The notes beneath the pieces were generated by a model, which was not told where the DNA came from, searched no databases, and saw nothing but the letters and a program-made list of their open reading frames with translations. DNA of 64,000 bases from an uncultured Anaerolineae bacterium (GTDB taxonomy: Bacteria > Chloroflexota > Anaerolineae > Aggregatilineales > UBA3940), in the NCBI GenBank assembly GCA_964439625.1, contig CAYTPI010000001.1, positions 80,944 through 144,943 of the forward strand, in the 5' to 3' direction. Position numbers and translations under genes: made by a program. Numbering within the stretch: the stretch's first letter is position 1; each line of letters opens with the position of its first letter. Positions 28,473-53,706 of the stretch are shown here, in pieces.

Positions 28473-28559
28473 CGGGGAGGACAGGATTCGAACCTGCGGT
28501 ACCCTTGCGGGCACAACTGCTTAGCAGGCAGCCCCAATCGTCCACTCTGGCACCTCCCC
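28473..28559 (-). tRNA. tRNA-Ser (anticodon GCT), class II, CCA not encoded
   Basis: Reverse complement GGGGAGGTGCCAGAGTGGACGATTGGGGCTGCCTGCTAAGCAGTTGTGCCCGCAAGGGTACCGCAGGTTCGAATCCTGTCCTCCCCG. Anticodon loop is CTGCTAA. It has a long variable arm and the T-loop GGTTCGAATCC. Confidence 0.9.
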
Positions 28560-28581
28560 AGTTAAAAACAGTATGCGGTTG

Positions 28582-28672
<91 letters not shown>

Positions 28673-28805: not shown

Positions 28806-28837
28806 CAAAACAAAAAAAGCCGGGCAACCACCCGGCC
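28806..28837 (-). terminator. Rho-independent terminator after the receiver gene 28845-29249
   Basis: On the minus strand: GCCGGG-TGGTTG-CCCGGC followed by TTTTTTTGTTTTG. Confidence 0.75.
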
Positions 28838-28844
28838 TATTCTG

Positions 28845-29249
28845 TTACTGCCACTCCCAGATGGGCTCCCCATTGAGGATTTTTTCAATCTGCTCCGGGA
28901 AGCGGTCGGGGTCAAGCGGCTTACCGATGAAGCCATCAAAGCCACCATTAATTGCTTTCTGCATATACTGCTCGCTAGCATTTGCCGTTACCGCAACAAT
29001 CTTGGTGCCTTTGTAGGCTTCATTATCCCGCAGACTTTTGTGAACCTCAAAGCCATTTTCATAAGGCAGTTGAATGTCGAGCAGAATTAAATCGATGGGA
29101 GTGAACTGGTCAGCCTCTTGGGCTGCTTTGTAGCCACTGCTGATCCACTCACAATATTCGATGCCAAGTGATGTTAATAGACGCAAAATAAGATTGAAGT
29201 TATTGACGTTATCCTCAACCACGAGCACCCGTGCATCTTTTGGATTCAT
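28845..29249 (-). CDS. Stand-alone response-regulator receiver (CheY-like)
   Basis: VLVVEDNVNN, DLILLDIQLP, VAVTANA, GKPLD. No output domain. Confidence 0.9.
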   Translation of the reverse strand: MNPKDARVLVVEDNVNNFNLILRLLTSLGIEYCEWISSGYKAAQEADQFTPIDLILLDIQLPYENGFEVHKSLRDNEAYKGTKIVAVTANASEQYMQKAINGGFDGFIGKPLDPDRFPEQIEKILNGEPIWEWQ

Positions 29250-29305
29250 ATGATTCTATCCTTTGTTGGTTGCTGTTTTCAAAAGTGTCAGAGCTACGTC
29301 GTTGG

Positions 29306-30196
29306 CTAGACAGCAGCCCCACGCTCAGAGAACAGCCGGGCGTTATCAATTGCAATCGCGACTTGATCCGCCATCATTTGGATGGTCTGAATGTCATCCT
29401 CAGTAAAGGCATTGACGCTCGTGCTTTGGACGTCTAACGCACCAATGACGTCACCACGTACACGCAGAGGTAGAGCCATCTCGGCGCGTGTTTTCGGTAG
29501 GTAGGGGTTATCAAAGCGGATTGCTTCTTCACCGACATCTAACGCGATGCGCGGTGCGTTGTTTGCCGTTACCCAGCCCACCATTGATTGGCTGCCAACG
29601 CCGAGCTTATGTCCAATCTCTAGCAACTGCTTACCGCCTTCACCAGTTGCTGCGCGGAGAATAGCCCACTCGCCGGCATTATCGATCAGAAAGATAGCGG
29701 CATAGTAGAAGCCGAAGTGCTCGCGGATCAAATTGACACAGCGTTCGATCAACTCTTGGTAGTCCAAGATTTGTGTTGCTGCTCGAGCAACCTCTGATGA
29801 GGCCAACAGTTGCATGCTGCGCTGCTGCAATTCCTTAAGCAGTCGCATCTCGTCACTGAGATTCTTAATTGAGTAAACAACGCCTGCAACTTTCTTCTCT
29901 TTCATTAAGGGGCCGGCCCGTAGTTCGACCGGGATGTTGCGTCCGCGCTTTGTAAGCAAGTCTCGAACGAAGGTATCCGTCTTTTTCCCTTTTTTGACCG
30001 TTGCGAGAATTTCTTTGATTGTTTCTTCGAATGCATCCGAGGCAAAGCCTGTCATTTTCAGCCCACTAGCATCCTCGCGAGAATATTCCAGTAAGTCAAG
30101 GACATCATCGTTTATCTCTGAAATGTTGCCGTCAAGATCAGTTACGATGACACCTTGGGGAATGCTGTTGATCAATTGGCGAACGTCAAGATCCAC
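29306..30196 (-). CDS. PAS-GAF signalling protein without output domain
   Basis: GTG start 7 nt after GGGAG. PAS (IPQGVIVTDLDGNISEIND) and GAF (FYYAAIFLIDNAGEWAILRAATGEGG...ALPLRVRGDVIGALDVQS...AIAIDNARLF). Confidence 0.85.
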   Translation of the reverse strand: MDLDVRQLINSIPQGVIVTDLDGNISEINDDVLDLLEYSREDASGLKMTGFASDAFEETIKEILATVKKGKKTDTFVRDLLTKRGRNIPVELRAGPLMKEKKVAGVVYSIKNLSDEMRLLKELQQRSMQLLASSEVARAATQILDYQELIERCVNLIREHFGFYYAAIFLIDNAGEWAILRAATGEGGKQLLEIGHKLGVGSQSMVGWVTANNAPRIALDVGEEAIRFDNPYLPKTRAEMALPLRVRGDVIGALDVQSTSVNAFTEDDIQTIQMMADQVAIAIDNARLFSERGAAV

Positions 30197-30547
30197 TCTT
30201 CTACTCCCTCGTATGGTCTGGTTTTGTAGTTGGGTTAAGGTTAATTTGCTGTCATATCTATCTGACTGCGCCCGTATAGTGAGTATAGCACGCTAGAGAA
30301 ACACGATAGAAACAATTTAGCTACAATTTAGTCTTAATTGCAAGGCAGACTGTAATGACATCCTAATCTTATTTGTGTAATGAACGTTTATACTATGTAT
30401 GGGTGGGAAAACAATGCCGGGAAGCACCGTTTGCCTCACTAAATAACGTGATCATGCAGCACGTATCCAATGTGTCACTTACGCTTGACATGTATTGTGC
30501 TAGCTGGATGCGAATTGACCTATCTGTTCTAAATTGTGGAGTAAGAG

Positions 30548-31711
30548 ATGTCTGATATAAAAAGTGATGCATCACATATGATTTTACTCGTCGATGATGA
30601 TCCAGCAATTCTTGAAGGCGTCGCCGACTTGCTGCGTCTGTATAACTATAACGTCATAACGGCAATTGACGGCAGCGATGCACTATCACAAATGCAGCTT
30701 ACTAAGCCAGACATCATCGTCTCTGATATTATGATGCCAGACATGGACGGCTACGAGTTTTTTGAAACGGTACGGGCAAATGCTTCATGGACAACAATTC
30801 CGTTTATCTTCTTAACCGCCCGTGGTCAAGCAAAAGATATTCGTCTAGGTAATATGCTGGGTGCAGATGCTTACTTAACTAAGCCTTTCGATCCGGAAGA
30901 CTTAATTGTGCTGGTAAAATCACGCTTGCAGCGTGTTCATGACATACACGAGGCAACACAGCATGATATCGACCGCATGAAGAATCAGCTAATCACAATC
31001 TTCAGCCATGAACTCCGCACGCCGTTGACATATATCTATGGCTACGTCAACTTATTGCAAGAGCAGCACACCGAACTTGAAGCGAACACTGTTGAGGACA
31101 TGCTGACGGGCGTTCAACGTGGTGCCGAGCGGCTGGTGAACCTCGTTGAGGACCTGATGCTGCTTGTGCGCATCGATAGTGGGATCGTCGAGATGGAAAT
31201 CAATATGCGCCAAGACGCCATAAACCTGCATGAACTGGTACAGCTTATATTGAGTGAATTTAAGCATGAAATTGCTAAACAGCGGCTTGAGGTCGAGATG
31301 GACATTGACCCTGCCATCGAAATCTATGGGATGGAATTACACCTGCGCGATGCGCTAAAGCGCGTGATTGATAATGCACTTAAATTCAGCCATCGTGGCG
31401 AAGGGCTTGTAACAGTGCGTGGGTACGCTCAAGGCGATCAGATCGTGATTGAAGTCATTGACCGTGGGATTGGCATCGCCGCGGGCAAACTTGATCAAAT
31501 CTTCGAACGCTTTAAGCAGCTTGACCGTGACCTTATGGAACAGCAAGGTATCGGGCTTGGCTTGAGTATTGCTGACACGATCATTACGTTGCACCATGGG
31601 CAGCTCTCTATCGAGAGCGAAGTTGGAGTCGGGACGACCTGCCGAATTTCTCTCCCCAATAGTGGCAGTGTTTTTAGTACGAACGGTATGGTAGAAATCA
31701 TCGACGCTTAA
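30548..31711 (+). CDS. Hybrid receiver-histidine kinase (REC-HisKA-HATPase_c)
   Basis: REC (LLVDDDPAILE, DIIVSDIMMPDMDG, LTARG, TKPFD). H-box FSHELRTPL. IDNALKFS, DRGIGI, GIGLGLSIA. Confidence 0.9.
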   Translation: MSDIKSDASHMILLVDDDPAILEGVADLLRLYNYNVITAIDGSDALSQMQLTKPDIIVSDIMMPDMDGYEFFETVRANASWTTIPFIFLTARGQAKDIRLGNMLGADAYLTKPFDPEDLIVLVKSRLQRVHDIHEATQHDIDRMKNQLITIFSHELRTPLTYIYGYVNLLQEQHTELEANTVEDMLTGVQRGAERLVNLVEDLMLLVRIDSGIVEMEINMRQDAINLHELVQLILSEFKHEIAKQRLEVEMDIDPAIEIYGMELHLRDALKRVIDNALKFSHRGEGLVTVRGYAQGDQIVIEVIDRGIGIAAGKLDQIFERFKQLDRDLMEQQGIGLGLSIADTIITLHHGQLSIESEVGVGTTCRISLPNSGSVFSTNGMVEIIDA

Positions 31712-31723
31712 ATTGATGCTCCA

Positions 31724-31751
31724 AGAGCCAGCCTCGACACAGGCTGGCTCT
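31724..31751. terminator. Bidirectional stem-loop between convergent genes
   Basis: agagccagcct-cgacac-aggctggctct forms an 11-bp perfect stem. Confidence 0.65.
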
Positions 31752-31756
31752 TTAGA

Positions 31757-32608
31757 TTATCTTCCGTTCAGCGTCAACTGCATTTCAATGCGCCGAAATG
31801 ACTCAACGTAGCCATGTTCAAAATAATGGTCGAGGAACGGGGCATCAGTTGGTACGTTCTCAGCGATTGTATCTAAAGCTGGGAACTGCATATGCAGCAG
31901 CGACAACAGTCGAGCGGCTGGAGCAGTAGCTGCTGTACCCTGTGGGCTCAGCATGACGCGCTTTAGCTGTAATTTACTTTTTAGGTAAGTGACCCAGCCA
32001 TATTCACCGGTGCCATCATCATTGATCTTTAACATCTCGACGCTGCCCGCATTACGCACCGACTCAAGCTGATTCGTCCAGGCGGCACGCCATGGACGCG
32101 TTTTTAGGCAGCTCAATGTGCTTACTTCATCCAGCCATTCGGCACAGGGTTCAACCAATGCAGAGAATGGCTGTGCAGGGCGAGGCGGGCGGCGGAGGAT
32201 TAATAACTCGCGCTGTTCAATAAAGCCTAAACTCTCAAACAGACGGTACGCTGGTTCGTTGCCGGTAATCACCTCCAGGAAGACATACTGAAGACGCCGT
32301 TCGATAGAACGCTCGATCATGTAATTCATCATATGGCGCCCAATGCCATTGCGCCTACTGCCAGGGATGACACCTAATCTCGTAATCCAGGAGCGGTTTT
32401 CCCTAACGCCCAACATACTGAGTCCAAGCATGTTGTGGTTCTCGTCTAGTGCAACAACTGAGTCTTCCAATGAAATATCGTAGGTATCAACGTAGGCTTG
32501 CAGACGCTTTGGCGACATTGGCATTGGTACAATGTAGTCGATGCGTGTCTGATTATATGCGTCTGTTAGCTCTTCAATTGAATACTGCGAGGCCGGTACG
32601 AGGTACAC
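31757..32608 (-). CDS. GNAT-family N-acetyltransferase
   Basis: Motif A: WITRLGVIPGSRRNGIGRHMMNYMIE...AYRLFESLGF. Confidence 0.8.
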   Translation of the reverse strand: MYLVPASQYSIEELTDAYNQTRIDYIVPMPMSPKRLQAYVDTYDISLEDSVVALDENHNMLGLSMLGVRENRSWITRLGVIPGSRRNGIGRHMMNYMIERSIERRLQYVFLEVITGNEPAYRLFESLGFIEQRELLILRRPPRPAQPFSALVEPCAEWLDEVSTLSCLKTRPWRAAWTNQLESVRNAGSVEMLKINDDGTGEYGWVTYLKSKLQLKRVMLSPQGTAATAPAARLLSLLHMQFPALDTIAENVPTDAPFLDHYFEHGYVESFRRIEMQLTLNGR

Positions 32609-32714
32609 GGTAAGTTTGCTCCGGGCTTTAGTTACTATATTCTGCGAAATACACCATCAGGTATGAGGTGGCATCTCGACAATTCTATTATGCTGGTAAA
32701 GCCCCGCAACGTAA

Positions 32715-33146
32715 TCAGTTGGTTATAGGTTTGATATGATCTTTTATCTGATCGTGGAATACGCGCGTATTGATTGGCTTAGAAATGTAGCCTTCACACT
32801 CATATGCATCTATCATTTTCTTTGCAGTTTCAGATGGCCATGCCGTAACGACAATAATCGGAGTATTGGGCAGGGCCTCTGGTTGTTTGAGCCATCCTGC
32901 GACTGTCTGACCGTCAACATCTGGTAGACCTAGGTCTAACAATATCAGATTTGGGTTTTGCGCCAACGCCATTTCCAAGCCAGACTCGCCATCTTCTGCG
33001 TGAAATAATTGATAATTGTGACGTTGTAATACGCGTAGCATCAAACGAGCGTTCTTGGGGTTATCCTCAATAATCAGAATCTTGGCGGCTGTGTTTTCAG
33101 TTGATTGATTGGCACTTGTTTCAGTTTCCACAGTCACACTCCCCAC
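32715..33146 (-). CDS. Stand-alone response-regulator receiver
   Basis: ILIIEDNPKN, NLILLDLGLPDVDG, VVTAW, SKPIN. Confidence 0.9.
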   Translation of the reverse strand: MGSVTVETETSANQSTENTAAKILIIEDNPKNARLMLRVLQRHNYQLFHAEDGESGLEMALAQNPNLILLDLGLPDVDGQTVAGWLKQPEALPNTPIIVVTAWPSETAKKMIDAYECEGYISKPINTRVFHDQIKDHIKPITN

Positions 33147-33241
33147 CTACAATGAATTGCACATCAGTTGTTAGTTCGTTAAGCAAAAGTTTATCGCTAA
33201 GGATATAACCGACCTGTTCCTTTTGCCACTAACTGTTGTAG

Positions 33242-33784
33242 TTATTGCTCCTGCTGGCCTTTTGAACGCTTAACAACTTTGCTCTCGACTTTTGCTTTGG
33301 ATTTTTTGTTTTCGTTTTTTGCTTTCGCGGCAGCTACTTTAGATTTACTCTCATCAGTCGTAGTCTTTTTCTTTGAATCTGTTTCTTCCGCAGGTATGCT
33401 AGCCTTCGTTTGAGCCGCTGGTAAAAACGTCTTCAAGGCTTCTCGAAGTTCATCACGGCTAATGGGCTTCCGCAGATAGCCGTCACAGCCTGCGGCAAGA
33501 AAGCGCTCGCGGTCGCCAACCATCGCGTTCGCCGTCAGTGCCACAATGGGGACTTCCTGCATAGCGGGGTTTTCTTTGAGCCGTTTAGTCACCTCAATGC
33601 CTGTGATATCAGGCAGGTTGATATCCATCAAGATGAGGTCAGGGGCAAGCTCCGGCGCCATTTTGAGTGCTGTTTCGCCGTCCTCAGCTTGGTGAACATC
33701 GTAGCCTCTCTTCTCAAGCTGCAGCATCCGGTTGACGAGTCGGAAGTTCTGGAAATTGTCTTCGACGTACAGGATGGTAGTCAT
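33242..33784 (-). CDS. Response-regulator receiver with Lys-rich disordered C-terminal tail
   Basis: ILYVEDNFQN, DLILMDINLPDITG, ALTANA, RKPIS, then about 55 aa of K/E/S/A-rich tail (KKKTTTDESKSKVAAAKAKNENKKSKAK...). Confidence 0.9.
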   Translation of the reverse strand: MTTILYVEDNFQNFRLVNRMLQLEKRGYDVHQAEDGETALKMAPELAPDLILMDINLPDITGIEVTKRLKENPAMQEVPIVALTANAMVGDRERFLAAGCDGYLRKPISRDELREALKTFLPAAQTKASIPAEETDSKKKTTTDESKSKVAAAKAKNENKKSKAKVESKVVKRSKGQQEQ

Positions 33785-33793
33785 ATAATCTCC

Positions 33794-34252
33794 CTAAATG
33801 ACTGTACTTGGGTTGGTGTTGCCTGTATCGTTTTGTGCAGATGTATCGGGTGTACTTGTGCTGGCTTCTTGCTGGCCTGCTTCGCGGTGACTGCCTTGCT
33901 GAATGAACTGCTCAATTTGCCCGGCGAATGCGCGCGTATCAATCGGCTTGGTAATGTAGCCATCACAACCATATGTCATGGCCCGTCGCTGTGTGGCGGT
34001 GTCAGTGCTGCCAGTCACAGCAACGACGGGGATATCACCTGGGATGCGGTTCAACAGAGCCGCAATGGTGTGACCACCAATATCAGGTAAACCGAGGTCA
34101 AGTAAAACAAGGTCCACGGTTTCCTCACTGGCAATCTTAAGCCCCGCTAGCCCCTCCGACGCATGCTTAACTTCATGCCCATTACGAGACAACACACGCC
34201 TGACGATATTTGCACTGTGTGGGTCATCTTCAATTACTAGTATCTTCGCCAT
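33794..34252 (-). CDS. Stand-alone response-regulator receiver with short Q/S/T-rich tail
   Basis: ILVIEDDPHS, DLVLLDLGLPDIGG, AVTGS, TKPID. Confidence 0.9.
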   Translation of the reverse strand: MAKILVIEDDPHSANIVRRVLSRNGHEVKHASEGLAGLKIASEETVDLVLLDLGLPDIGGHTIAALLNRIPGDIPVVAVTGSTDTATQRRAMTYGCDGYITKPIDTRAFAGQIEQFIQQGSHREAGQQEASTSTPDTSAQNDTGNTNPSTVI

Positions 34253-34263
34253 GTGTTTGCTCC

Positions 34264-36387
34264 TCAGTTGGCCTTGTCGAACATACTCATAATTTCTTTC
34301 TGAAGCATGGTTCGTTCAATGGCCCCCTTTGTCAGGGTTTTATCGACTCGGGTTTCCAGAATTTTGCGCTCTTTGCGTGTTAGGTCTTTTGCCGTCAGTA
34401 AGATGACGGGCGTCTCCTGAGCAATCGAATGTTCTCGCAGGTGTTCGAGTAGCTCAATGCCTGTCATATCAGGCAGCATTAAATCTAAGATGATTAAATC
34501 TGGTGCCATTTGTTCCAAGAACTCAATCGCTTGTTCACCAGTATGCGCTTCGTAGACTTCACACTGCCGCTGATCTTTCAGTGTTCGCTTAAGTAAGCGT
34601 CCGTCTAGTGGGTTGTCTTCAACTAAGAGGAGCTTGAACTGTGATTGCTCAAACTCGCTAGCCGCTGGTGCTTTAGTAGGGATAGTAGTTCCTTCTGGGT
34701 GCTTATTGTTGTCGCTGCTGGGTAGCAGTCGTGGTTCATCACCTAGGGTCGTGACAATATGATTGACAAGATCGTGCGTATTGTAGTTACCCTTGACCCA
34801 TAACGACACGGTTTTGCGCTCTAAGTCATTTTGTTCCGTTTGGCTTAGAGTCTTGCCAGAGACGACAATAACGGGTATTTCAGCGGTGAGTTCATCGGCC
34901 TTGAGGGTATCTATCAAGTCAAAGCCATTGACGTTAGGCATCATTAAATCAACGATGACCAGATCAGGCTGGCGGTATCGCACAAGGTCAAGACCTGTAT
35001 CAGGGTCGTTAGCTTCAAATATGCGATACGACTTATGCCGTTGTAACAAGCGTTTAATTAAGCGGCTGTCTTGCGGTGAGTCATCGATGACAACAATGCT
35101 GGTAATGCGTTCATCGAGGAACTCAAGCGCTGCTCCTAAGCCCTCTTCGGGAAGGACGCCCCATTGATCCGCCAGTTCACTTTTGACGGCAATATCAACA
35201 ACTTGCTGGTCACTGAGAATAAACTTCTCAACAGGCATCGTGTGCCCAGACGCGTTAATGACAACTTTGTGCTCAGGTGCTACCAGCCCTTGTGCGACCA
35301 TCTTGGCAAAACCTGCAAAGGCCACAGCAGTTGCTGGCTCAACAGAAATCCCTTCTAACCGGGCAAGACGTCGCATCCAAGTGAACGCCTCATCATCAGA
35401 GACCGATACCATCGTGCCGCCCATTTGCTTCGTTGCTCGGTACAAATAGGTATAACCAAACCCCGGCGCGCCGGTCGACAAAACTGTAATCGCGGTTCTC
35501 GGTTCTATGGGCTCGGCTTCTTCTTGGTCTTGCTCGAATGCGCGTACCATTGGGGCGCATCCATCAACCTGAATAATGCCAAGCCGTGGCAGGCTGTCTA
35601 CCATGCCAATCTGCTTGAGCTCTGTGAAGCCTTTCCACACACCGATTGGGCCTAAGCCACCGCTTACGGCCTGTATGAACCAATCCGGGGTGTGCCAGTT
35701 AAGCTGTTCAGCAATTTCAAAAGCCATGGTCTTCATGCTTTCTTTGCTCGCAATTGCCTTAGCGCCGCGTTCGTAGTGAATGCCGTGGCGTTTGGCAAAG
35801 CTGGCTGCAACCACCTTGGTCTGATCGTATGTGCCCGTCACTTTGATCACGTCAGCGCCATACAACGAGATTTCCCGCATTTTTTCACCAGGAACCTGAC
35901 TGGTTAGAAATACCCACAGCTTAATTCCGGCACGGGCACAATAGGCAGCATAGGCAGTTGCGGCGTTCCCTGTCGAGGCGATCACGGCATCTTTGACCCC
36001 AGAGGCAACTAAAGCGGATACAGCAAGTGATGCTTGCCTATCTTTGAAGGAACTGGTCGGGCCGCGGCGCTCATCCTTGATGTAAATATGCTTATGGTTT
36101 AAATAGTCGCCAAGACGTGTTGCCTGAAACAGTGGTGTAGCCCCCTCTACCATGGTAACGCGATGCACATCATTGACGGGTAGCAAATGCTTGTAACGCC
36201 AGAGACCATCGGCATTATTCCCGAGGCCATCAGGCCAAAGCTTGCTGACAGCCTCATAGTCGTACCGGGCATCTACCCATGGTGAGCCGCACGATGTGCA
36301 GGCTACCACATCAAGTGTTGCGGGCATCATATGGTCACATGCTAGACATGCGACCTGTTTGAATGTACTGCTGACTGAAGGTGTCAA
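34264..36387 (-). CDS. Threonine-synthase-like PLP enzyme fused to two C-terminal receiver domains
   Basis: N-terminal Cys4 ribbon (CLAC...CTSC). PLP-Lys motif PTSSFKDRQA (Lys codon 36043-36045). ASTGNAATAYAAY and AVSGGLGP, colinear with ThrC. REC1 (VVIDDSPQD, DLVIVDLMMPNVNG, VVSGK) and REC2 (LLVEDNPLD, DLIILDLMLPDMTG, LLTAK). TTG start. Confidence 0.85.
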   Translation of the reverse strand: MTPSVSSTFKQVACLACDHMMPATLDVVACTSCGSPWVDARYDYEAVSKLWPDGLGNNADGLWRYKHLLPVNDVHRVTMVEGATPLFQATRLGDYLNHKHIYIKDERRGPTSSFKDRQASLAVSALVASGVKDAVIASTGNAATAYAAYCARAGIKLWVFLTSQVPGEKMREISLYGADVIKVTGTYDQTKVVAASFAKRHGIHYERGAKAIASKESMKTMAFEIAEQLNWHTPDWFIQAVSGGLGPIGVWKGFTELKQIGMVDSLPRLGIIQVDGCAPMVRAFEQDQEEAEPIEPRTAITVLSTGAPGFGYTYLYRATKQMGGTMVSVSDDEAFTWMRRLARLEGISVEPATAVAFAGFAKMVAQGLVAPEHKVVINASGHTMPVEKFILSDQQVVDIAVKSELADQWGVLPEEGLGAALEFLDERITSIVVIDDSPQDSRLIKRLLQRHKSYRIFEANDPDTGLDLVRYRQPDLVIVDLMMPNVNGFDLIDTLKADELTAEIPVIVVSGKTLSQTEQNDLERKTVSLWVKGNYNTHDLVNHIVTTLGDEPRLLPSSDNNKHPEGTTIPTKAPAASEFEQSQFKLLLVEDNPLDGRLLKRTLKDQRQCEVYEAHTGEQAIEFLEQMAPDLIILDLMLPDMTGIELLEHLREHSIAQETPVILLTAKDLTRKERKILETRVDKTLTKGAIERTMLQKEIMSMFDKAN

Positions 36388-36504
36388 CTTGCTTACCTGA
36401 AGTTAATGGAAAACATACTTATTAGAACCTCGTCATCACTGTAGCACGCGAGGCTAAGGTCACACAACTGTATTGAGGGTATTGTATCTGCCCTGTAATG
36501 ACTT

Positions 36505-36549
36505 TTGAACAAAGAAGCACCATCTTCAGATTGCTGCTGATGGTGCTTC
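36505..36549 (-). terminator. Stem-loop downstream of the 2486-aa kinase gene
   Basis: gaagcaccatc (36514-36524) pairs with gatggtgcttc (36539-36549), an 11-bp stem. On the minus strand it is followed by TTTGTTCAAAAG. Confidence 0.5.
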
Positions 36550-36592
36550 AGTTTGGATACTACTCGTTATTAAGGCAAACTAACCTGCTGAT

Positions 36593-39500
36593 TTAGTCGC
36601 CTGTGAATTCATCGACTTCTTCACCAGAGCGGTGCCCATTACCATTACTGCTGCTTGCGTGGCCGTTTCGGCTAACATTACCACCTATCGAGTCTTCATC
36701 CGGTAGGTCTTCACTTGTGGGTTCTAATGGCAATGACAGTATAAACACACTACCCGTACCTGGTTCACTGCTTTCTAGCCAGACATCGCCACCATGGAGA
36801 CGGGCCAACTGCCGGGTAATTGCCAACCCAAGCCCAGTGCCGCCTGCTTTGCGGGTTGCAGACCCGTCTGCCTGACGGAATTGGTCGAAGATGAAACTGT
36901 GCTGCTCATACGGGATGCCAATACCAGTATCTTGAACTTCGACATGTAACCAGCGATTGTTGACGGTCATCACACCAACCCGGACGTAGCCTTTTTCGGT
37001 GAACTTAATGGCGTTACTGAGCAAGTTCCAAATGACCTGCCGGATGCGAACAGCATCCGCACTGACGACGGGTAGGTCTTCCTCAATTTCGATCCGCAGC
37101 TCAACGCTAGGCTTGTCCCGTAGTTGGACGCGTAACATGTCAACAATCTGTGGCAGAGTGTTGGTCAAGTCAACTTGGCTGCGATTAAGCTCCATGCGGC
37201 CTGCCTCGATCTTCGCGAGATCAAGAACGTCATTGATAATGGCGAGCAAATGGTGCCCGCTAGAGTGAATAGCCTTGATGTCGTCGAGCGCCATCTCATC
37301 GAGTTCTTCTTTCATCTCATCGATCAGCAGTTCGGAGTAGCCGATGATCGAGTTGAGCGGTGTTCTTAACTCATGGCTCATGTTCGCTAGGAACTCAGAC
37401 TTCAACTGGTCGACTTCGCGCAGCTTGTCCATAGTCTTCAACTGCTCTTGATAGAGTTCTGCGTTCGAGATAGCAATGGCTAACTGGCTCGCCAGAATGG
37501 AGAGTGTCCGGATTTCGTCATTGTTGAACTGCTCGGCCCTGTCTTGCTGCACGTCGAGAACACCGACCACATCGTCACCGACTGCCAGTGGAATGGCAGC
37601 CTCTGATATTGTGTCGGGTAATAGTGGGTTCGGTAAGTGGAACGGGTCGGTGCGGACGTCGTTCACAACGACGGGCTCCAGTGTTCTGGCGGAGCGAGCA
37701 ACCAGGCTTCGGCCTGCATCCATCGGAATGCTGTGCTCGCGACGTTTCATTTCGCTGCCTGCATGGCCTAAACCCGCACGTACTGTCAGGACGCCCTGCT
37801 CACGGTTCATCAAGTAGATGTGGCAATAGTAGTAGTCAAAGGCTTGTGCAACCCGGGTGACGGTGTTGTCCAGCAACTCCTCGATATCCAGGGTGGCAGT
37901 TAACTGACGCGCCAACTCGTAAGCTGTTTCTTGCCGGCGTTCAATGCGCCGCTCTTCAGTGATGTCTCTGGAGATACCCAGAATGTAAACAACTTTGCCT
38001 GCGTTATCCATAACGGGTATTTTTCGTGTTTCTAGAACCCGCTGCTCGCCGTTGGCAAACTCAACCAAGTCGTTCGCGTTGTAGACGATCTGTCCTTTCT
38101 CCAAGACTTTTAGATCATCGGCGCGGTAGCCAGGTGTGCCACCAATTTCTCCGGTGATGTAGGCCTCGTCCGACAAGTCCTCGTCGCGCTTGCCAATAAT
38201 TTCCTCTGGTGAGAGGGCAAAGGCCTCGGTAGTCATTTTTTCATTTGCTAACACGAAGCGTAGGTCACGGTCTTTCAAGAAAATCCAGTCAACGGAGGCA
38301 TCGATCACTGAGCGGATTAGGCGCTCTGACTCAGCGGTGTTGACTAAGGCATCGCGGACGCGGTTGAGCAGCAACTGGTTACTAACGGTTATGGATGCCT
38401 GCTCAGCAACTGACCGGTAGAAGCGTTCCGTCTGTTCACTGATTGCACCGGGTTCTGTGCCCGTTAGAGAAATCCAACCGAGCCAGCGGCGGCTGCTGTC
38501 TCGCAACAGCAAGCTCATCATGCTGCGGGCGGTGCTCATCTGCGGAACGGTCTCACGCGTGATGTCATCAATGCGCTGATCTTTGTCAAGATCCGCTGCA
38601 TAGAATAGGCCGTCAACTGCATTGTCTCTTAGCGACAGGAGCAGATCATGGTCGATGCCCTCCGAGGACTGAGTGACCTGAGCCTGCTTATCAGTCATAG
38701 AGTAAGCGGACATATGTTGATATGTGCTAATTGACTGACCGATGGTTATAGGTTCATCAAATAGGTATAGGTCTAGCCGGTCAAGATGAGCAGGTGGCGT
38801 AGTGCTGACAATTGCTTGCAGCAGTTGGTCGAAGGAACCGGCTGCAGCAATGCTGCTAGAAGCCTCATACAGGCTTTCTGTCAGTCTCAGGCTTGCTTCT
38901 GTCTCACTGAACAACTCTGCGTTCGACAGCGCAACAGCAAGCTGGCTGGACACAATCTCTAGCGTGTTGATTTCCGCTTCGTCAAAAGCGAATGGCGTGT
39001 CTTGCTGAATGTCAAGGACACCCAAGACGCGTTTACCAAGCGAGATTGGTATCGCGACTTCTGCTTGCGTTTGCGGGAGCAGCGGGTTCGGTAAATGACC
39101 AGGGTCAGTGGTGACATCATCGACCGCGATGGATTGATTGTCTCGAGCGGCGGCTGCTACAAAGCTTCGGGCGGCATTTAATGGAATGGCGTGCCCACGA
39201 TTTTTGAGTTGCTGGCCTGCTTGGCCTAGACCTTCTGCTAGGAAGAGGACGTTCTCTTCTTCATCTAGAAGGTAGATATGCGCATGGTAGTAGTTGAATG
39301 TATCTGCCAATTGGCTAACCGTAATCGACAGTAGTTCTTGCGGGTCAAGCACAGTGCTCAGACTGCGGGCCAGTTCACGACCAAGCGTCTCACGCTCCGT
39401 CTGGCGGATACGGTCGGTCACGTCATATTGCAGACCGACGAAGTAAGTCAGGTCACCCTCACGGTTGACAATCGGTGAGATGTTCAACTCGTTGTAGAAG

Positions 39501-42500
39501 AGCGTGCCGTCTTTACGGTAGTTTCTCAACAAGACGGTTGTCTTGCGGCCTTCCTCCAGCGCTGACCGTAGTTCGTCAAGGGCTTCTTGGTCGCGATCAT
39601 CGCTCTGAAGGAAACGACAGTTGTTGCCGACAGCCTCGTCAAAGCTGTAGCCGGTGATGGTCGTAAAGGCCTCGTTGACGTAAGTCAGGGGCATGTCTGG
39701 CTGACGGGCATCTACAATTGAGACACCAACCAGACTACTTTCAACCGCTGCTTGCTGCAACTGGAGCTCTTCGATCAGGCGCGTGTTCTCAAGGGCCGAG
39801 CTCAACTGCGTGGTGATAATTTCGAGAAGCTGGATTTCCTCGTTGGTGAAGTAGTCTTTCTGGTCGTGCTGAACGTCAAGCACACCAATAATGCGTCCAC
39901 CGGCATCCATCGGAATAGCTGCCTCTGACTTCGTGCGTGGGAGCAGAGGGTTCGGTAGGTGCCCAGGGTTTTGCCGCACGTCGTTCACAATCACTGGCTC
40001 GCCAGTACGCGCGGCTTCAGCCACAAGACTGCGTTGGGCCCCCAGCGGGATAGTGTGGCGGCGTGCCTTCATCGATGCACCCGCTTCACCGAGGCCTTCG
40101 ACAACAACCAAGGCCTGATCGCCTTCATTAAGCAGATAGATATGCGCATGGTAGAAGCCGAAACCGCGGTCTAGCTGCTCAATGGTGCGTTCTAACAGGC
40201 GCTCTTGGTTGAAGATAGAACTCAATTCTTGCGCCAATTCATAGGCTGTAGTTTGGCGCACCTGCCGCAGTGCGCTTTCGGTCACATCGGAAATACTGGC
40301 GATGATGTTGTCACTATCTTGGACTTGGGAGAAACTGGCATTGAAGTAGCGTTTACCAATTGGCAAGTCGAGCGTGTAGCGCATCGACTGCACCGCACCA
40401 GTTTCACGGGTAACGTCGAGCAGTTCTTCAAACGCTTCACCAGTCTGCCCTGGTAATACTTGAATAGGTGTTTTGCCAATCAGGTTGGCACGCTCCTCTA
40501 CCAGCAGTTCATCTGATGAGGCGTAAACCTGTAAGTGGCGGTTGTCGCAGTCGAACACGGTGAGTATGTTTGGAATGGAACTCACGACGATGTCTAACTC
40601 AGCCAACGCCTGCTGTGCATTTTCGAGCGCCTGCTGCGCTTCAAAGGTTGTTGAAATTTGAGTCCCTAATTGACCATAGAAACGCTGATCAGCACGGGTA
40701 AATATTTGTGGGTCGGGGAAGTTCACTGTGATAAGCCCGAGCCAACGTCCACCAATCGCCAGCGGCAAAAGAACGAGGCCGCGAACGTCAAGGAGCGTGT
40801 AGGTTGCTTTTTGATCTTCAGTCAGTCGTTCGGATGCTTTAATGTCGTCGATCAAGCGGGCCTGTGTTGGGTCTTCCAGCCAGACGTCGGCAAATGGAAT
40901 TTCCGCAATTTCAAATACAGCACCCTGTGGCATTGCGATGCCTTCATCGGTAGCGGCTGAGGCTGAGACGCGCGCCGTTTCCGGTACACCATCAGCATTG
41001 AGATCAAAGGTAAACAACGAAACCGAGGCCGCACCGCGTTCAAAGCTGCGCTCTGCGATGGCTTGCAGCACTTCGCTGCTGGTTGGCGCTTCAATAATGG
41101 TACGCGAGGTTTCAAACAGCAGTTCTGATTCGCTCAATGCCAGCGACGTTTGGCGCAGCAGACGCTGGTTGTCTAACACGTTGGCAAACTGTGGGGCCAA
41201 CAAGTCAAGCATCTGATACTCGTCGTCTTGCAGCTCAACTTTGTCCGACCAGACCAACGTTACTAGGCCAACCCAGCGCCGCCCGAGCGGTACCAGTGGC
41301 ACCAGCGTCACAGCGGTGATGCCTGTCTTGATCAAGGTGTCACGCAGTTCGTCGTTCAAGCGGTCATCTGAGACGATGTCCGGTATGGACTGAATAACGT
41401 TCAAGTTACCGAAAATCAACTCCAAGAGTTGAAAATTATCTAGTTCGTACATCGTACCGATAGGGGCATCATCGTGCACCACATCGGTGTTGTTGGTGCG
41501 GGCCGCCAGTTCAAACATGACTGGGTTGCCAGCCTCATCGTTGATCACAAGGTGAAGTGTCGCCGTGCCGGGGTTCGAATTCAGAATGGGCTCGACGAAG
41601 GTTTCCAGTAATTGCTGTGGATTATCAAGCTCGTTGAGGCGGCGACCAATCTGGTAGAGCGTCTCAACTTGGAATAGGGCTTCTTCTGTCTGGCGAAGCA
41701 GTTGTGCGCCGGTAATGGTGTACGCAATCGAGATAGCAGCGGTTTGCATCAACTCAATTTCGGACTCTTCCCAAAGGCGTTCCTCTTCGGTTTCGTCTAT
41801 ACCGATGACGCCGAACAATGTATTCTCAACCATAATCGGAATGAGCAAGATAGACTGTGCGCCCATTTCATGCATCAGGTTGCGCTCGTGCTTGTGTGGT
41901 TCCGTGGTAACCGAGCTGAGAACCGTTTTGCCCTGCTGAAGTTCGTTGTACCAGTTAGGCATGGCGTCTTCGAGTACCATATTCCGTAGGCTTGGGTTTT
42001 CGCTGTACTTTGTCTTTCTTGGGGATGCCCAATCATAGAGAATTCCATCATTGCCAAGGTCATCATCCAGCGGTGTTATGTGCCGGACAAGGAAGACATG
42101 GCACGCACGAGAGACTTCGCCAAGAATACGAATGGAGTCATTCAACCCATCGATGCCGAGGTTTAACAGGTTGGTAGCAACTCGAGCTACTGCCGCTGAG
42201 AAGCGGTTCTGGCGAGCTAGGTTGTCTAGTGCGTTGCGGGTTTGTTCTTGTGCTTCTTGCAGACTCTGGAAGGTGCGCGCGTTTTGCACCGCCACAGATA
42301 CCTGACCTGCCAATGTGTTCATCACCAAAATGGTTTCTGGTTTGAAGTAATCTACCCGTTCCGATTGCAAGTCAAGAACGCCAAGTACCTCGTCTTCTGC
42401 GAGTAGCGGCAGGGCTAACTCTGATCGTGTCTCGGGGAGCAGGGGGTTCGGTAAGTGTCCTACTTCCTTACTGACATCAGCAATAACGATTGCTTGCTTG

Positions 42501-44053
42501 CCGCGTGCAGCGCGTGCCACTAAGGAGCGCTCGGCCTGAGCAGAAATTGCATGGCCTTGCTGCTTCATGAAGCGGCCTGCTGTTCCTGCACCGGCTTCCA
42601 TCTTGAGCATATCTGTCGATGGATCTAATAGGTAGACATGAGCATGATAGAGACCAAAGCTTTCTTTCGTTAACTCAGCGACTTGAGGCAGCACTTCTTC
42701 CAGTGACAGACTGCGGGATATCTGCTGCGAGACTTCCGCGGCAATCTCTAGATCGCGGGTGCGTTCTGCAACCCGATCTTCGAGCGTGGTAATGGTCTCT
42801 TCAAGCTGTTCTGCCATCGTATTGAAGGCATTGCCCAACTCACCGAACTCGTCTTGGCGGTTGACTTCTACTCGCGTGCCGAGGCCACCCTCACTAGAAA
42901 TTCGCTGCGCACCTTCGCGAAGCTGTTCGAGTGGTTGCGTGAAGGTCAGTGTAAGCTGCCGTGCAACGACCAGCGCGAGGGCAACCACGACACCAAGGGT
43001 TGCCAACAACAGCGTAGTTGAGCGGCGTACGGGTGTTAAAATAAATTCTGTCCGTGCGAGGCCAATCACATGCCAGTTGACGAACGCCAAACTCTCAGAG
43101 TCGCTCAAGGAAATCGGTTCAATGAAGGCGGCTGCTTCGGCCCCATCTTGACTCGCAACAATGTTGAACTGAGCATCAAAAAAGCCCATACCGAGTGCAT
43201 CCGCAGAAAGCTGGTTAGCAATTAACCCAGGGACTGCGCGAAGTTGCTCGTTTGGTTCATAGGGTTGCCCGGCTTGGAATAGAATATCTCCGATGGAATT
43301 GACAAGCAGGTATTCGCCAGCCGGTGAATTAACCAGTTGCACTGTCAAACCCTCGATGTTGTACAGGCTGTGCATGACAGCGACTGTGCCGGAGCGGTCA
43401 ACTTCAATTGGCGTTGCGATTGTGACAACAGCATTGCCTGTGCGTTCATTGGTCCGGACTTCTGGATCGATGTAAAATTGTTCGGCTTCACCCTCAATGG
43501 CTGACTGCCACCAAGCAGTATCATTATAGAGGTAAGGGACATCCCGCTCGGTTGATGCAATTAATGCACCGAACTGGTCTACAATAATCATCTCTTCATG
43601 GAACGGGACGTCGGTGGTGACATCCTGTAATCCCCTTGCGCTGTCGCCTGACAGCACCCCCAGTCGGATCGCAGCCGTATCGTTAGTATTGTTCCAACGG
43701 GCTTCAGCCTCTGCAATGCGCTCGCTGCGAATCGTTTCATCTTCCGGATAGTTTGATAGCCGAGCGACAATATCACGCTGAATAATTTCGCTCGCACTGA
43801 AAATGTTCATGAAATCAACTTGATCTTCAATGGCGGCTGTGATTTCCCCTGCGGCAGCACGTGTGCTTTCTTCAAGGTCGGCGTTGGCTTGCTGCACTGT
43901 GTCCGCCCGCGTGCGGAAGATCGCCAGTAAGGCGATGACAATTAGCGGAATAGTTGCAACAAGGAGGATAGATAGCAGAAGGCGTCTTCCGACGGAGCTT
44001 CTGTTTTGTGGGGCATTTTGTGATTCCGAGGGCATTGAGTCCATGGTTGCCAC
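36593..44053 (-). CDS. Giant sensor histidine kinase (2486 aa): TM, Cache-like sensor, TM, HAMP, ~8 GAF, 3 PAS (one LOV), HisKA, HATPase_c
   Basis: TM1 (LLLSILLVATIPLIVIALLAIF), about 300 aa extracytoplasmic, TM2, HAMP (FTQPLEQL...GELGNAFNTMAEQL). GAF blocks, four of them carrying GHLPNPLLP. H-box MSHELRTPL (His codon ~37373-37375). LLSNAIKFT, DTGIGIP, GTGLGLAI. The ATG at 44044, 6 nt after AAGGTG, is an alternative start. Confidence 0.9.
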   Translation of the reverse strand: MATMDSMPSESQNAPQNRSSVGRRLLLSILLVATIPLIVIALLAIFRTRADTVQQANADLEESTRAAAGEITAAIEDQVDFMNIFSASEIIQRDIVARLSNYPEDETIRSERIAEAEARWNNTNDTAAIRLGVLSGDSARGLQDVTTDVPFHEEMIIVDQFGALIASTERDVPYLYNDTAWWQSAIEGEAEQFYIDPEVRTNERTGNAVVTIATPIEVDRSGTVAVMHSLYNIEGLTVQLVNSPAGEYLLVNSIGDILFQAGQPYEPNEQLRAVPGLIANQLSADALGMGFFDAQFNIVASQDGAEAAAFIEPISLSDSESLAFVNWHVIGLARTEFILTPVRRSTTLLLATLGVVVALALVVARQLTLTFTQPLEQLREGAQRISSEGGLGTRVEVNRQDEFGELGNAFNTMAEQLEETITTLEDRVAERTRDLEIAAEVSQQISRSLSLEEVLPQVAELTKESFGLYHAHVYLLDPSTDMLKMEAGAGTAGRFMKQQGHAISAQAERSLVARAARGKQAIVIADVSKEVGHLPNPLLPETRSELALPLLAEDEVLGVLDLQSERVDYFKPETILVMNTLAGQVSVAVQNARTFQSLQEAQEQTRNALDNLARQNRFSAAVARVATNLLNLGIDGLNDSIRILGEVSRACHVFLVRHITPLDDDLGNDGILYDWASPRKTKYSENPSLRNMVLEDAMPNWYNELQQGKTVLSSVTTEPHKHERNLMHEMGAQSILLIPIMVENTLFGVIGIDETEEERLWEESEIELMQTAAISIAYTITGAQLLRQTEEALFQVETLYQIGRRLNELDNPQQLLETFVEPILNSNPGTATLHLVINDEAGNPVMFELAARTNNTDVVHDDAPIGTMYELDNFQLLELIFGNLNVIQSIPDIVSDDRLNDELRDTLIKTGITAVTLVPLVPLGRRWVGLVTLVWSDKVELQDDEYQMLDLLAPQFANVLDNQRLLRQTSLALSESELLFETSRTIIEAPTSSEVLQAIAERSFERGAASVSLFTFDLNADGVPETARVSASAATDEGIAMPQGAVFEIAEIPFADVWLEDPTQARLIDDIKASERLTEDQKATYTLLDVRGLVLLPLAIGGRWLGLITVNFPDPQIFTRADQRFYGQLGTQISTTFEAQQALENAQQALAELDIVVSSIPNILTVFDCDNRHLQVYASSDELLVEERANLIGKTPIQVLPGQTGEAFEELLDVTRETGAVQSMRYTLDLPIGKRYFNASFSQVQDSDNIIASISDVTESALRQVRQTTAYELAQELSSIFNQERLLERTIEQLDRGFGFYHAHIYLLNEGDQALVVVEGLGEAGASMKARRHTIPLGAQRSLVAEAARTGEPVIVNDVRQNPGHLPNPLLPRTKSEAAIPMDAGGRIIGVLDVQHDQKDYFTNEEIQLLEIITTQLSSALENTRLIEELQLQQAAVESSLVGVSIVDARQPDMPLTYVNEAFTTITGYSFDEAVGNNCRFLQSDDRDQEALDELRSALEEGRKTTVLLRNYRKDGTLFYNELNISPIVNREGDLTYFVGLQYDVTDRIRQTERETLGRELARSLSTVLDPQELLSITVSQLADTFNYYHAHIYLLDEEENVLFLAEGLGQAGQQLKNRGHAIPLNAARSFVAAAARDNQSIAVDDVTTDPGHLPNPLLPQTQAEVAIPISLGKRVLGVLDIQQDTPFAFDEAEINTLEIVSSQLAVALSNAELFSETEASLRLTESLYEASSSIAAAGSFDQLLQAIVSTTPPAHLDRLDLYLFDEPITIGQSISTYQHMSAYSMTDKQAQVTQSSEGIDHDLLLSLRDNAVDGLFYAADLDKDQRIDDITRETVPQMSTARSMMSLLLRDSSRRWLGWISLTGTEPGAISEQTERFYRSVAEQASITVSNQLLLNRVRDALVNTAESERLIRSVIDASVDWIFLKDRDLRFVLANEKMTTEAFALSPEEIIGKRDEDLSDEAYITGEIGGTPGYRADDLKVLEKGQIVYNANDLVEFANGEQRVLETRKIPVMDNAGKVVYILGISRDITEERRIERRQETAYELARQLTATLDIEELLDNTVTRVAQAFDYYYCHIYLMNREQGVLTVRAGLGHAGSEMKRREHSIPMDAGRSLVARSARTLEPVVVNDVRTDPFHLPNPLLPDTISEAAIPLAVGDDVVGVLDVQQDRAEQFNNDEIRTLSILASQLAIAISNAELYQEQLKTMDKLREVDQLKSEFLANMSHELRTPLNSIIGYSELLIDEMKEELDEMALDDIKAIHSSGHHLLAIINDVLDLAKIEAGRMELNRSQVDLTNTLPQIVDMLRVQLRDKPSVELRIEIEEDLPVVSADAVRIRQVIWNLLSNAIKFTEKGYVRVGVMTVNNRWLHVEVQDTGIGIPYEQHSFIFDQFRQADGSATRKAGGTGLGLAITRQLARLHGGDVWLESSEPGTGSVFILSLPLEPTSEDLPDEDSIGGNVSRNGHASSSNGNGHRSGEEVDEFTGD
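39409..39736 (-). other. LOV (light-oxygen-voltage, flavin-binding PAS) domain inside the giant kinase
   Basis: VSIVDARQPDMPLTYVNEAFTTITGYSFDEAVGNNCRFLQSDDRDQEALDELRSALEEGRKTTVLLRNYRKDGTLFYNELNISPIVNREGDLTYFVGLQYDVTDR. The adduct-forming Cys lies in NCRFLQ (codon 39617-39619). The flavin-contact N (RNY), N...N (YNELN) and Q (GLQ) are all present. Confidence 0.8.
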
Positions 44054-52083: not shown

Positions 52084-52095
52084 AATGTCTCTCCA

Positions 52096-53691: not shown

Positions 53692-53706
53692 GGAAGGGGC
53701 TGCATT

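Follow-up and report, generated by a model that had tools for sequence, protein, structure and literature searches.

We analysed a stretch of 64,000 nucleotides (the window) from an uncultured Anaerolineae bacterium of the Chloroflexota (GTDB lineage Aggregatilineales; UBA3940; assembly GCA_964439625.1, contig CAYTPI010000001.1, positions 80,944 to 144,943). Positions 28845-44053 of the window hold an island of two-component genes. Among their products are a sensor histidine kinase of 2486 residues and a fusion protein in which a pyridoxal phosphate (PLP) enzyme resembling threonine synthase (ThrC) is followed by two receiver (REC) domains. An initial annotation, made from the sequence alone, had described nine signaling proteins at this locus without a recognizable transcriptional output.

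Composition of the Island

The domains of the window were assigned by Pfam and NCBIfam scans of the translated open reading frames (ORFs), with a Pfam threshold of E ≤ 0.01 on whole proteins. All nine proteins of the initial annotation were recovered by Pfam at their positions, and domains, key residues and H-boxes bore out its count of seven receivers and two kinases (Table 1). Each receiver possesses the acidic pair, the phosphorylatable aspartate (Asp58, 71, 54, 52, 480, 635 and 60; see Table 1 and below), a Thr or Ser at β4 and a Lys at β5. Both kinases carry the H-box SHELRTPL (His2227 in the 2486-residue protein and His154 in the 387-residue protein) in a HisKA dimerization and phosphotransfer (DHp) domain that is accompanied by HATPase_c, and both are thus HisKA-type sensor kinases. 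The minus strand reads kinase, fusion, REC152, REC180, REC143 and GNAT, then PAS-GAF and REC134; the REC-HisKA-HATPase (REC-HK) gene lies on the plus strand, convergent with the GNAT gene.

Table 1: Features of the island and its boundary (positions in the window).
Feature	Positions	Strand	Basis
Sensor histidine kinase, 2486 residues	36593-44053	-	Pfam, whole protein and segments
LOV domain of the kinase	39389-39754	-	NCBIfam and GNNCRFLQ motif
Hairpin in the 205-bp gap between kinase and ThrC-like genes	36505-36549	-	Fold -22.3 kcal/mol, z -3.0
ThrC-like PLP enzyme with two receivers, 707 residues	34264-36387	-	PALP E 4e-65 and two Response_reg
REC152, stand-alone receiver, 152 residues, Asp52	33794-34252	-	Pfam E 4e-24
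REC180, stand-alone receiver, 180 residues, Asp54	33242-33784	-	Pfam E 8e-29
REC143, stand-alone receiver, 143 residues, Asp71	32715-33146	-	Pfam E 6e-21
Tandem GNAT acetyltransferase, 283 residues	31757-32608	-	Acetyltransf_1 E 5e-13
Hairpin between the convergent GNAT and REC-HK genes	31724-31751	both	GC-rich, 12-bp
REC-HisKA-HATPase kinase (REC-HK), 387 residues, Asp60, His154	30548-31711	+	Pfam
PAS-GAF protein without output domain, 296 residues	29306-30196	-	Pfam
REC134, stand-alone receiver downstream of PAS-GAF, 134 residues, Asp58	28845-29249	-	Pfam E 2e-21
Intrinsic-terminator-like hairpin with T-run	28817-28838	-	Terminator scan; -25.7 kcal/mol, z -5.5

No Hpt, HTH, GGDEF, EAL or HD-GYP domain was detected by Pfam in the whole island proteins. 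The tails, linkers, small ORFs and a segment of the large kinase were rescanned with Pfam at a relaxed E ≤ 10, and the same five domains were absent from the tails, linkers and small ORFs. A cryptic Hpt or DNA-binding domain in the tails, a possibility raised with the initial annotation, was not found in this way, nor was a hidden Hpt or HTH in the linkers, the small ORFs and residues 1710-1910 of the kinase. The search for Pfam DNA-binding domains covered ORFs of at least 100 residues over the full 64 kb, ORFs below 100 residues outside the island being left out, and found none; CheA, CheW, MCPsignal, CheR and CheB had no match in any scanned ORF of the window. These results agree with the earlier view that the island lacks HTH, Hpt and chemotaxis genes and the window a DNA-binding regulator. 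A phosphorelay in the strict sense, with an Hpt or a Spo0B/ChpT-like step between two receivers, is not supported for the island, in whose proteins no Hpt was detected; that a DHp domain may serve as phosphotransferase is compatible with the sequence.

Conservation in Chloroflexota

More than 120 full-length homologues of the fusion protein were found (47–81% identity), the named ones belonging to Anaerolineae, Aggregatilineales or Thermofonsia. Relatives of the fusion occupy at least 572 loci in species-representative genomes. The 80 loci listed were all from Chloroflexota, bar one record titled only "bacterium", and carried the order labels Anaerolineales, Caldilineales, Ardenticatenales, Thermoflexales and Aggregatilineales. 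Neighborhoods were counted in 83 nonredundant loci, with those offering enough sequence as denominators.

Three contigs with fusion homologues of 80%, 70% and 61% identity show the series kinase, fusion, three receivers, GNAT, REC-HK (on the opposite strand), PAS-GAF and receiver, and the gene order is identical in loci whose fusion is 58–80% identical. Immediately before the fusion gene, 63 of 75 loci have a kinase. Directly downstream, a stand-alone receiver was found in 66 of 77 loci and a REC-HK instead in 5 more; a GNAT gene follows the receivers in 28 of 67. In an all-against-all clustering of the downstream ORFs, no other family was shared nearly as widely as the receiver (76 loci) and the GNAT (32 loci), and Hpt was not among the widely shared neighbors in the 83 loci. 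The next shared coding family downstream, a PA14/SH3 protein, was present in 13 loci. None of these 13 loci has the GNAT; in them the PA14/SH3_3 protein, of about 500–590 residues, comes after a single receiver, for example at L016:12858-14366 (related loci are designated by L numbers).

Since the gene order is conserved and the kinases upstream of the fusion share an orthologous core (see below), the clustering is not fortuitous. The synteny test suggested earlier therefore came out in favor of co-conservation, with the core retained across the five labeled orders. Judged from gene content and receiver types, the island is composite. Part A comprises the kinase, the ThrC-like-REC-REC fusion and a receiver of the REC180 type; part B is a REC143-type receiver with the tandem GNAT. 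REC152 (part C) and the group of REC-HK, PAS-GAF and REC134 (part D) are additions of close relatives only. Thus, the notion of a single 15-kb island holds in that its genes are co-conserved, but it has to be modified to a core with a portable REC143/GNAT pair and lineage-specific additions.

Similarly, the lack of a transcriptional output holds for this locus, but some relatives possess response regulators of the NarL type (REC-GerE) or with a cyclase. In L005/L006 a PAS kinase and a REC-GerE regulator lie inside the island, and in Thermofonsia-type relatives the fusion adjoins REC-GerE and a HisKA_3 kinase. REC-GerE genes were observed inside or beside the module in L005/6, L001-3, L010 and L011. 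In four checked relatives a gene for a REC-adenylate/guanylate cyclase is located between kinase and fusion (L028:8899-9969, L048:6011-7126, L053:8709-9812 and L061:8915-9976; Pfam), which adds an output through cyclic nucleotides to the operon. A REC gene of similar size occupies this position in the phmmer domain maps of L055 and L068.

The Multisensor Kinase

Segment-wise Pfam searches of the 2486-residue kinase revealed a dCache domain (residues 52-265; dCache_1, E 5e-9, below the gathering score), a transmembrane segment, HAMP (369-419), an array of about seven GAF and three PAS domains, and C-terminal HisKA (2218-2285) and HATPase_c (2333-2444) domains. Neither REC nor Hpt was found by Pfam in the whole protein or its segments. 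The protein ends 42 residues past HATPase_c with a low-complexity tail, so that the C-terminal receiver of a hybrid histidine kinase is missing.

One of the PAS domains is a LOV domain (1434-1555). By sequence it qualifies as a LOV photosensor, with the motif GNNCRFLQ at residues 1475-1482 and the predicted flavin-adduct Cys1479, and the NCBIfam YtvA-family and LOV-kinase models match residues 1415-1560 (E 3e-43 and 1e-40, resp.). Of 65 orthologous upstream kinases, only 3 have the true LOV Cys motif; otherwise the "LOV" label of the locus maps matched generic PAS domains. LOV was therefore rejected as the module-defining input, and light would be an input specific to this lineage.

Comparison of the transmitter core with those of the kinases that immediately precede the fusion in relatives gave a median identity of 51%, compared to 31% for the other kinases of those loci and 31–32% for the three other kinases of this window. 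On this sequence evidence the kinases directly upstream of the fusion have an orthologous transmitter core. Their sensor arrays vary freely, from 415 to 3015 residues.

The ThrC-Like Fusion Protein

The fusion consists of a four-Cys Zn ribbon (residues 14-33), the PALP domain (77-381), REC1 (430-548, Asp480) and REC2 (585-700, Asp635). Its AlphaFold2 model has a mean predicted local distance difference test (pLDDT) score of 85.6 with flexible linkers. Conservation was examined in 62 homologues of 48–81% identity. The catalytic PLP-binding Lys115 in the motif SFKDRQ is invariant, as are the PLP loop and Ser138, Gly140 and Asn141 of the STGN loop (Thr139 in at least 90%), and the C-terminal EPA and SGHT motifs show little or no variation. 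In the Zn ribbon, two of the Cys residues never vary and the other two occur in at least 90%. The Asp and Lys residues of both REC1 and REC2 are likewise invariant. This Lys lies in the motif S-x-W-x-K-(G/A) at residues 528-533 and 683-688; the other five receivers of the island have K-P.

Source databases label the fusion only as "threonine synthase" or "pyridoxal-phosphate dependent enzyme". Its scores stay below both NCBIfam equivalog cut-offs for threonine synthase (TIGR00260, 166.2 versus 167.1; PRK08197, 285.9 versus 303). The best Foldseek matches are the ThrC proteins of Aquifex, M. tuberculosis and Thermus with about 30% identity, and the cysteate synthase CapA2 matches with 24%. In Thermus ThrC, the substrate-phosphate site comprises the Thr of STGNT, the motif N-S-x-N-P and an Arg. 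The fusion departs from canonical ThrC in three places: Ala142 takes the place of the Thr of STGNT, x-Gly208 that of the N-S of NSxNP, and SGGxGP that of the PLP loop GNAGN. A conserved K/R215 stands one position off the aligned phosphate-binding Arg, beside an alignment gap, and the claim that this Arg is lost was therefore withdrawn.

A canonical ThrC with the motif NSxNPFRLEGQKT is encoded within 10 kb of the fusion in L020, L025 and L035, an argument for regarding the fusion as a paralogue with a role of its own. No hom or thrB neighbors were seen in any locus mapped. An exhaustive search of the representative genomes yielded stand-alone members of the SGGxGP clade with 42–51% identity (P0245-P0254), one of which sits in a housekeeping-like context. 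In the ThrC-REC loci L076 and L077, a second, stand-alone Zn-ribbon ThrC-like paralogue with the motifs TAGNAG, EPYRLEGKK and TGGGTG directly follows the module receiver (L076:4151-5312 and L077:11974-13188).

Fusions with a LeuA allosteric domain, with a PadR HTH or with inositol monophosphatase at the N-terminus were found in more distant Zn-ribbon ThrC-like enzymes of 30–35% identity (P0289, P0291, P0312, P0331, P0343, P0346, P0372 and P0317), which together look like a family of differently regulated enzymes. The recurrence of regulatory C-terminal additions in the ThrC-like family favors a role of the receivers as regulators of the enzyme. Judged by its motifs, the ThrC-like domain looks catalytically active and does not look like the housekeeping ThrC. 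The proposal of the initial annotation that a PLP enzyme forms an enzymatic endpoint is plausible.

Receivers and Their Partners

In a mirror-tree test over 40 loci, the distance matrix of the kinase DHp domain was compared with those of other domains, and the partial correlation controlled for the ThrC domain. The REC180-type receiver gave the highest values (r 0.73, partial r 0.54), followed by the kinase's own catalytic (CA) domain (0.69 and 0.51), REC1 (0.58 and 0.29) and REC2 (0.58 and 0.26). This is soft evidence that the kinase has its closest partner in REC180.

Stand-alone receivers were typed by their best match to the receiver types of the window. REC180 is the module's most widely conserved type; of 37 single-receiver loci, 29 match it best. 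REC143 types are usually the second receiver in order. REC152 types were the best match in 10 loci, four with three and six with two receivers, and always stand first after the fusion. The best NCBIfam matches of REC180 are the receivers of BarA, ArcB and TorS. REC180 and REC134 share the β4 motif (A/V)(L/V)TANA and have hybrid-kinase receivers as best family matches; REC143 carries the motif VVTAWP. An NCBIfam model for EpsW gave sub-threshold matches to receivers of the window. The Lys-rich tail of REC180 (residues 118-180) noted in the initial annotation is present here but is not conserved: orthologues of 70–80% identity have acidic or S/T-rich tails and most others none. As it also lacks a Pfam match, the tail was rejected as a cryptic DNA-binding module. 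The tail of REC152 is a low-complexity S/T/Q sequence.

In five variant loci a kinase with two C-terminal receivers (HK-REC-REC) is followed by a ThrC-REC1 protein and a REC-HisKA-HATPase protein. The receiver of the latter was of the REC180 type in all four of these loci whose downstream kinase was typed, and the hybrid kinase ends in a receiver similar to REC2 or REC1 of the fusion. The fusion of the REC180 type to HisKA-HATPase indicates that this type works with kinase transmitters. The REC-HK of the window was considered as an orthologue of these proteins and rejected, since the kinase cores are nonorthologous and the receiver types differ. Among the loci mapped, its own orthologues are confined to L004, L005/6 and L008, and PAS-GAF and REC134 are syntenic with the island only in these close relatives. 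By domain architecture, REC-HK is a lineage-specific, receiver-controlled kinase.

The REC143/GNAT Pair

REC143-type receiver and GNAT co-occurred in 27 loci and were both missing in 39; no locus had the receiver alone and one had the GNAT alone. In this single locus the two receivers are fused into one ORF. The pair was also found away from any ThrC fusion, in L090. A partnership between the GNAT and the product of the ThrC-like enzyme was not supported, since the GNAT tracks the REC143 type and accompanies the receiver alone in L090. Because of the nearly perfect coupling to one receiver type, the acetyltransferase, which the initial annotation had named with reserve as a further endpoint, is a plausible one.

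The AlphaFold2 model of the GNAT (mean pLDDT 91.8) has a tandem-GNAT fold, and the protein can be classed as a tandem GNAT. The N-terminal domain contains the acetyl-CoA motif RRNGIGR, which fits the pattern (R/Q)xxGx(G/A); its R85 and G90 never vary, and R86 and G88 hardly do. Foldseek matched 3ddd, MAB_4324, VipF, the clavulanate-pathway tandem GNAT, Eis and MshD, with TM scores of 0.53–0.72 (normalized to the query) and sequence identities of 10–16%.

Island Boundaries and Neighboring Genes

Of the three terminators predicted by the initial annotation, all coincide with stable hairpins, but only the one at 28817-28838 passed the consensus scan. This hairpin closes the island immediately before two tRNA-Ser genes (anticodons GCT and TGA; 28472-28672, minus strand), which mark the island boundary. 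The hairpin at 31724-31751 (-28.5 and -25.1 kcal/mol, z -4.7 and -5.3 on the two strands) resembles a bidirectional terminator. The one at 36505-36549, which failed the scan, may be a terminator or an attenuator; a promoter-like match is located in the same intergenic gap (36509-36481).

Elsewhere in the window, two more large multi-GAF/PAS HisKA kinases of 1138 and 1482 residues are encoded in tandem (11767-15183 and 15223-19671, minus strand) beside a GTPase gene (19643-20797); their transmitter cores are about 32% identical to that of the island kinase. A STAND-type NB-ARC/TPR protein (55603-57741, plus strand) and a Ser/Thr protein kinase (3575-4726, minus strand) indicate that the window is generally rich in signaling genes. 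Further features are an SRP RNA (4901-5000), two DUF2064/CofC-like genes (44763-45419 and 51418-52806, minus strand), the second of which adjoins a family-2 glycosyltransferase, a weak second GNAT (47685-48848) and an arylamine N-acetyltransferase (22509-23300). Three consecutive ORFs of about 260 residues (52885-55349, plus strand) and an ORF of 564 residues (58803-60497, plus strand) are without any Pfam match.

Interpretation of the Island

The island is best explained as a two-component module whose outputs are enzymes instead of DNA-binding proteins and whose control is post-translational; we give this reading a probability of about 0.5. According to this model, the kinase would phosphorylate the REC180-type receiver and both receivers on the enzyme. 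Phosphorylation of REC1 and REC2 would switch the PLP enzyme allosterically, probably via its oligomeric state; the LeuA and PadR domains at the C-terminus of related ThrC-like enzymes are precedents for such regulatory additions. The enzyme itself would be a ThrC paralogue probably acting on a phospho-amino acid or a related substrate, and not the housekeeping threonine synthase. The REC180-type receiver could be a competing acceptor (a sink) or a connector to other kinase transmitters. Phosphorylated REC143 would bind and regulate the GNAT as a split receiver-enzyme pair, and REC152, REC-HK, PAS-GAF and REC134 would be lineage-specific branches through which a second kinase step, gated by a receiver, comes in. 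As there is no Hpt, any transfer between receivers needs a DHp intermediary and would run back through the DHp domain of a kinase.

Several observations weigh against this model. The REC-GerE and REC-cyclase genes of relatives show that other outputs can be wired into the module, and in L001-3, L010-13 and L017 the fusion has neither an adjacent kinase nor an adjacent stand-alone receiver. The Gly or Ala that replaces the usual Pro after the conserved Lys of REC1 and REC2 may render their behavior atypical. The assignment of phosphotransfer partners rests on adjacency, orthology and the mirror-tree correlation, which is confounded by shared history and rates, and the coupling of REC143 type and GNAT (Fisher p 7e-18) is uncorrected for phylogenetic nonindependence. 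The domain maps of the related loci were obtained with phmmer, using the window's own domains as queries, on longest-ORF gene calls. The hairpin and the promoter-like site between the kinase and ThrC-like genes suggest that the two are perhaps not cotranscribed here. Finally, the closest stand-alone relative of the enzyme (51%), with its housekeeping-like context, leaves room for a genuine threonine-synthase activity.

A true multistep phosphorelay with a hidden link appears unlikely. In it, phosphate would pass from the kinase to REC180, on to an unrecognized phosphotransferase and from there to the receivers of the ThrC-like protein, to a distant transcription factor or to both; candidates for the missing component are a divergent Hpt with its gene elsewhere and the DHp domain of REC-HK acting like ChpT or Spo0B. 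The resemblance of REC180 to the receivers of the hybrid kinases BarA, ArcB and TorS, its stronger covariation with the DHp domain than that of REC1 or REC2, its fusion to HisKA-HATPase in the variant loci examined and the REC-GerE regulators in or beside the module of some relatives (L005/6, L001-3, L010 and L011) would all fit. However, no Hpt emerged in the island proteins, tails and small ORFs even at E ≤ 10 or among the widely shared neighbors of the 83 loci. Moreover, REC-HK retains a full HATPase_c domain, and it cannot be the general link since its orthologues occur only in close relatives.

It is somewhat less probable still that the fusion is the threonine synthase of the organism, or one of two, with receivers that tune threonine synthesis to the environment. 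The closest solved structures are bona fide ThrC enzymes, both equivalog cut-offs are missed only barely, the catalytic Lys and STGN motif are conserved, the basic K/R215 lies one position from the aligned phosphate-binding Arg, and the closest stand-alone relative is found among housekeeping genes. Nevertheless, both cut-offs are missed, other residues stand in for the N-S of NSxNP and the Thr of STGNT, and SGGxGP takes the place of the GNAGN loop; in addition, three related loci have a canonical ThrC within 10 kb, and no locus showed hom or thrB as neighbors.

Doubtful, and ranked below the threonine synthase, is a role of the PLP domain as an input. The domain would bind an amino-acid-type metabolite and gate the phosphorylation or dephosphorylation of its own receivers, which would make the fusion a metabolite-controlled phosphate sink. 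The MocR/GabR regulators with their PLP-fold sensor domains offer an analogy. An N-terminal enzyme with C-terminal receivers is an unusual order for response regulators, related ThrC-like domains are fused to PadR, where ligand sensing is plausible, and it is the REC180 type and not REC1 or REC2 that tracks the DHp domain best. On the other hand, the invariance of the full catalytic apparatus over the 62 homologues argues for retained catalysis, and the LeuA-type allosteric domain at the same position in other relatives fits a regulated enzyme.

A chance assembly of unrelated two-component genes in a genome rich in them is highly improbable: the signaling genes of the window are indeed dense, with two large multi-GAF kinases and a Ser/Thr kinase outside the island, and REC152, REC-HK, PAS-GAF and REC134 are conserved among close relatives only, but for the core this explanation is already contradicted by the conserved order (identical where the fusion is 58–80% identical and, for the core, kept across five labeled orders), and the kinase core is orthologous across loci and REC143 type and GNAT are nearly perfectly coupled.

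Within the preferred reading of enzymes as outputs, a more far-reaching version can be put forward tentatively. The kinase would directly switch a ThrC-family enzyme that makes or destroys an amino-acid-derived metabolite other than threonine, and the coupled receiver would switch the tandem GNAT. Environmental signals, with blue light among them in this lineage, might in this way give rise to a small-molecule or acetylation signal, no transcription factor being involved. This would be an unrecognized output class shared by Anaerolineae and related Chloroflexota, with the REC143/GNAT pair as the first acetyltransferase controlled by a phosphorylated receiver; we regard it as possible, with the odds against it.

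Significance and Comparison with Known Systems

Chloroflexota are abundant in sediments, wastewater and hot springs; their physiology and filamentous lifestyle are poorly understood. Two-component systems are mostly viewed as switches for transcription, chemotaxis and cyclic nucleotides, and in this module the conserved endpoints seem to be a PLP enzyme and an acetyltransferase. The conserved module suggests signaling that acts on enzymes rather than on genes. If true, this would constitute a new output class of response regulators and link His-Asp phosphorylation to acetylation. The system offers testable parts, namely the orthologous kinase core, three candidate acceptor types that differ in co-evolution with this core, the coupled receiver-GNAT pair and the ThrC paralogue. 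Full-text literature searches, which also covered two-component work on Anaerolineae, gave no description of ThrC/PLP-receiver fusions or of receiver-GNAT pairs. We therefore judge the enzymatic output and the receiver-acetyltransferase pair to be undescribed; the two-component framework itself is known.

The methylesterase CheB, the diguanylate cyclases PleD and WspR and the HD-GYP protein RpfG are likewise fusions of receivers with enzymes, so that phosphorylation acts post-translationally. PleD, which is among the family matches of the window receivers, also has two tandem receivers. In contrast to these proteins, the output here belongs to the ThrC family of fold-type II PLP enzymes and precedes its receivers in the chain. 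Both receivers keep the phospho-Asp and have no Pro after the conserved Lys. With ThrC and cysteate synthase the ThrC-like domain shares the fold and the catalytic Lys motif SFKDR; it differs by its sub-cut-off scores, altered substrate-site and PLP-loop motifs, the Zn ribbon and the two C-terminal receivers. The island GNAT and the tandem GNATs MAB_4324, VipF, Eis, MshD and that of the clavulanate pathway have in common the two-domain fold with the acetyl-CoA motif in one domain. However, identities to them amount to only 10–16%, and the island GNAT is strictly coupled to a receiver gene.

REC180 and REC134 resemble the receivers of the ArcB, BarA and TorS phosphorelays, and a REC180-type or REC2-like receiver is kinase-fused in the variant loci; unlike these systems, the island kinase has no fused receiver and the island no Hpt. 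In Caulobacter, the LOV histidine kinase LovK works with the single-domain receiver LovR. As in such LOV kinases, the Cys of NCRFLQ lies upstream of HisKA and stand-alone receivers are the likely partners, but here the LOV domain shares a protein of 2486 residues with other sensor domains, about 14 in all.

The FATGUY motif discussed for intermediate receivers (PMC9981736) is not evident in the island receivers. LvrB of Leptospira is reported to have the same architecture as REC-HK, with an N-terminal receiver gating the kinase (PMC13269768); the comparison concerns architecture only, and REC-HK of the window has orthologues only in close relatives. The "four-component" system RedCDEF of Myxococcus xanthus reportedly joins a kinase and a kinase-like protein to a dual-receiver protein and a single-domain receiver (PMC2755868). 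Like the island, RedCDEF combines several two-component proteins with neither an Hpt nor a DNA-binding output (PMC2755868). Without an Hpt and with DHp as intermediary, the island would resemble a sink or a Red-type system (PMC2755868). RedCDEF differs in that it has no fused enzyme and no acetyltransferase, whereas the dual receiver of the island belongs to a PLP enzyme and occurs in Chloroflexota. The model for the second output is EpsW-EpsZ of M. xanthus, in which a single-domain receiver activates an enzyme through direct contact (PMC12802240). Modeled on this pair, REC143 is a stand-alone receiver encoded beside an enzyme with which it strictly co-occurs; in contrast to EpsZ, the target suggested by this gene coupling is a tandem GNAT and not a phosphoglycosyl transferase.

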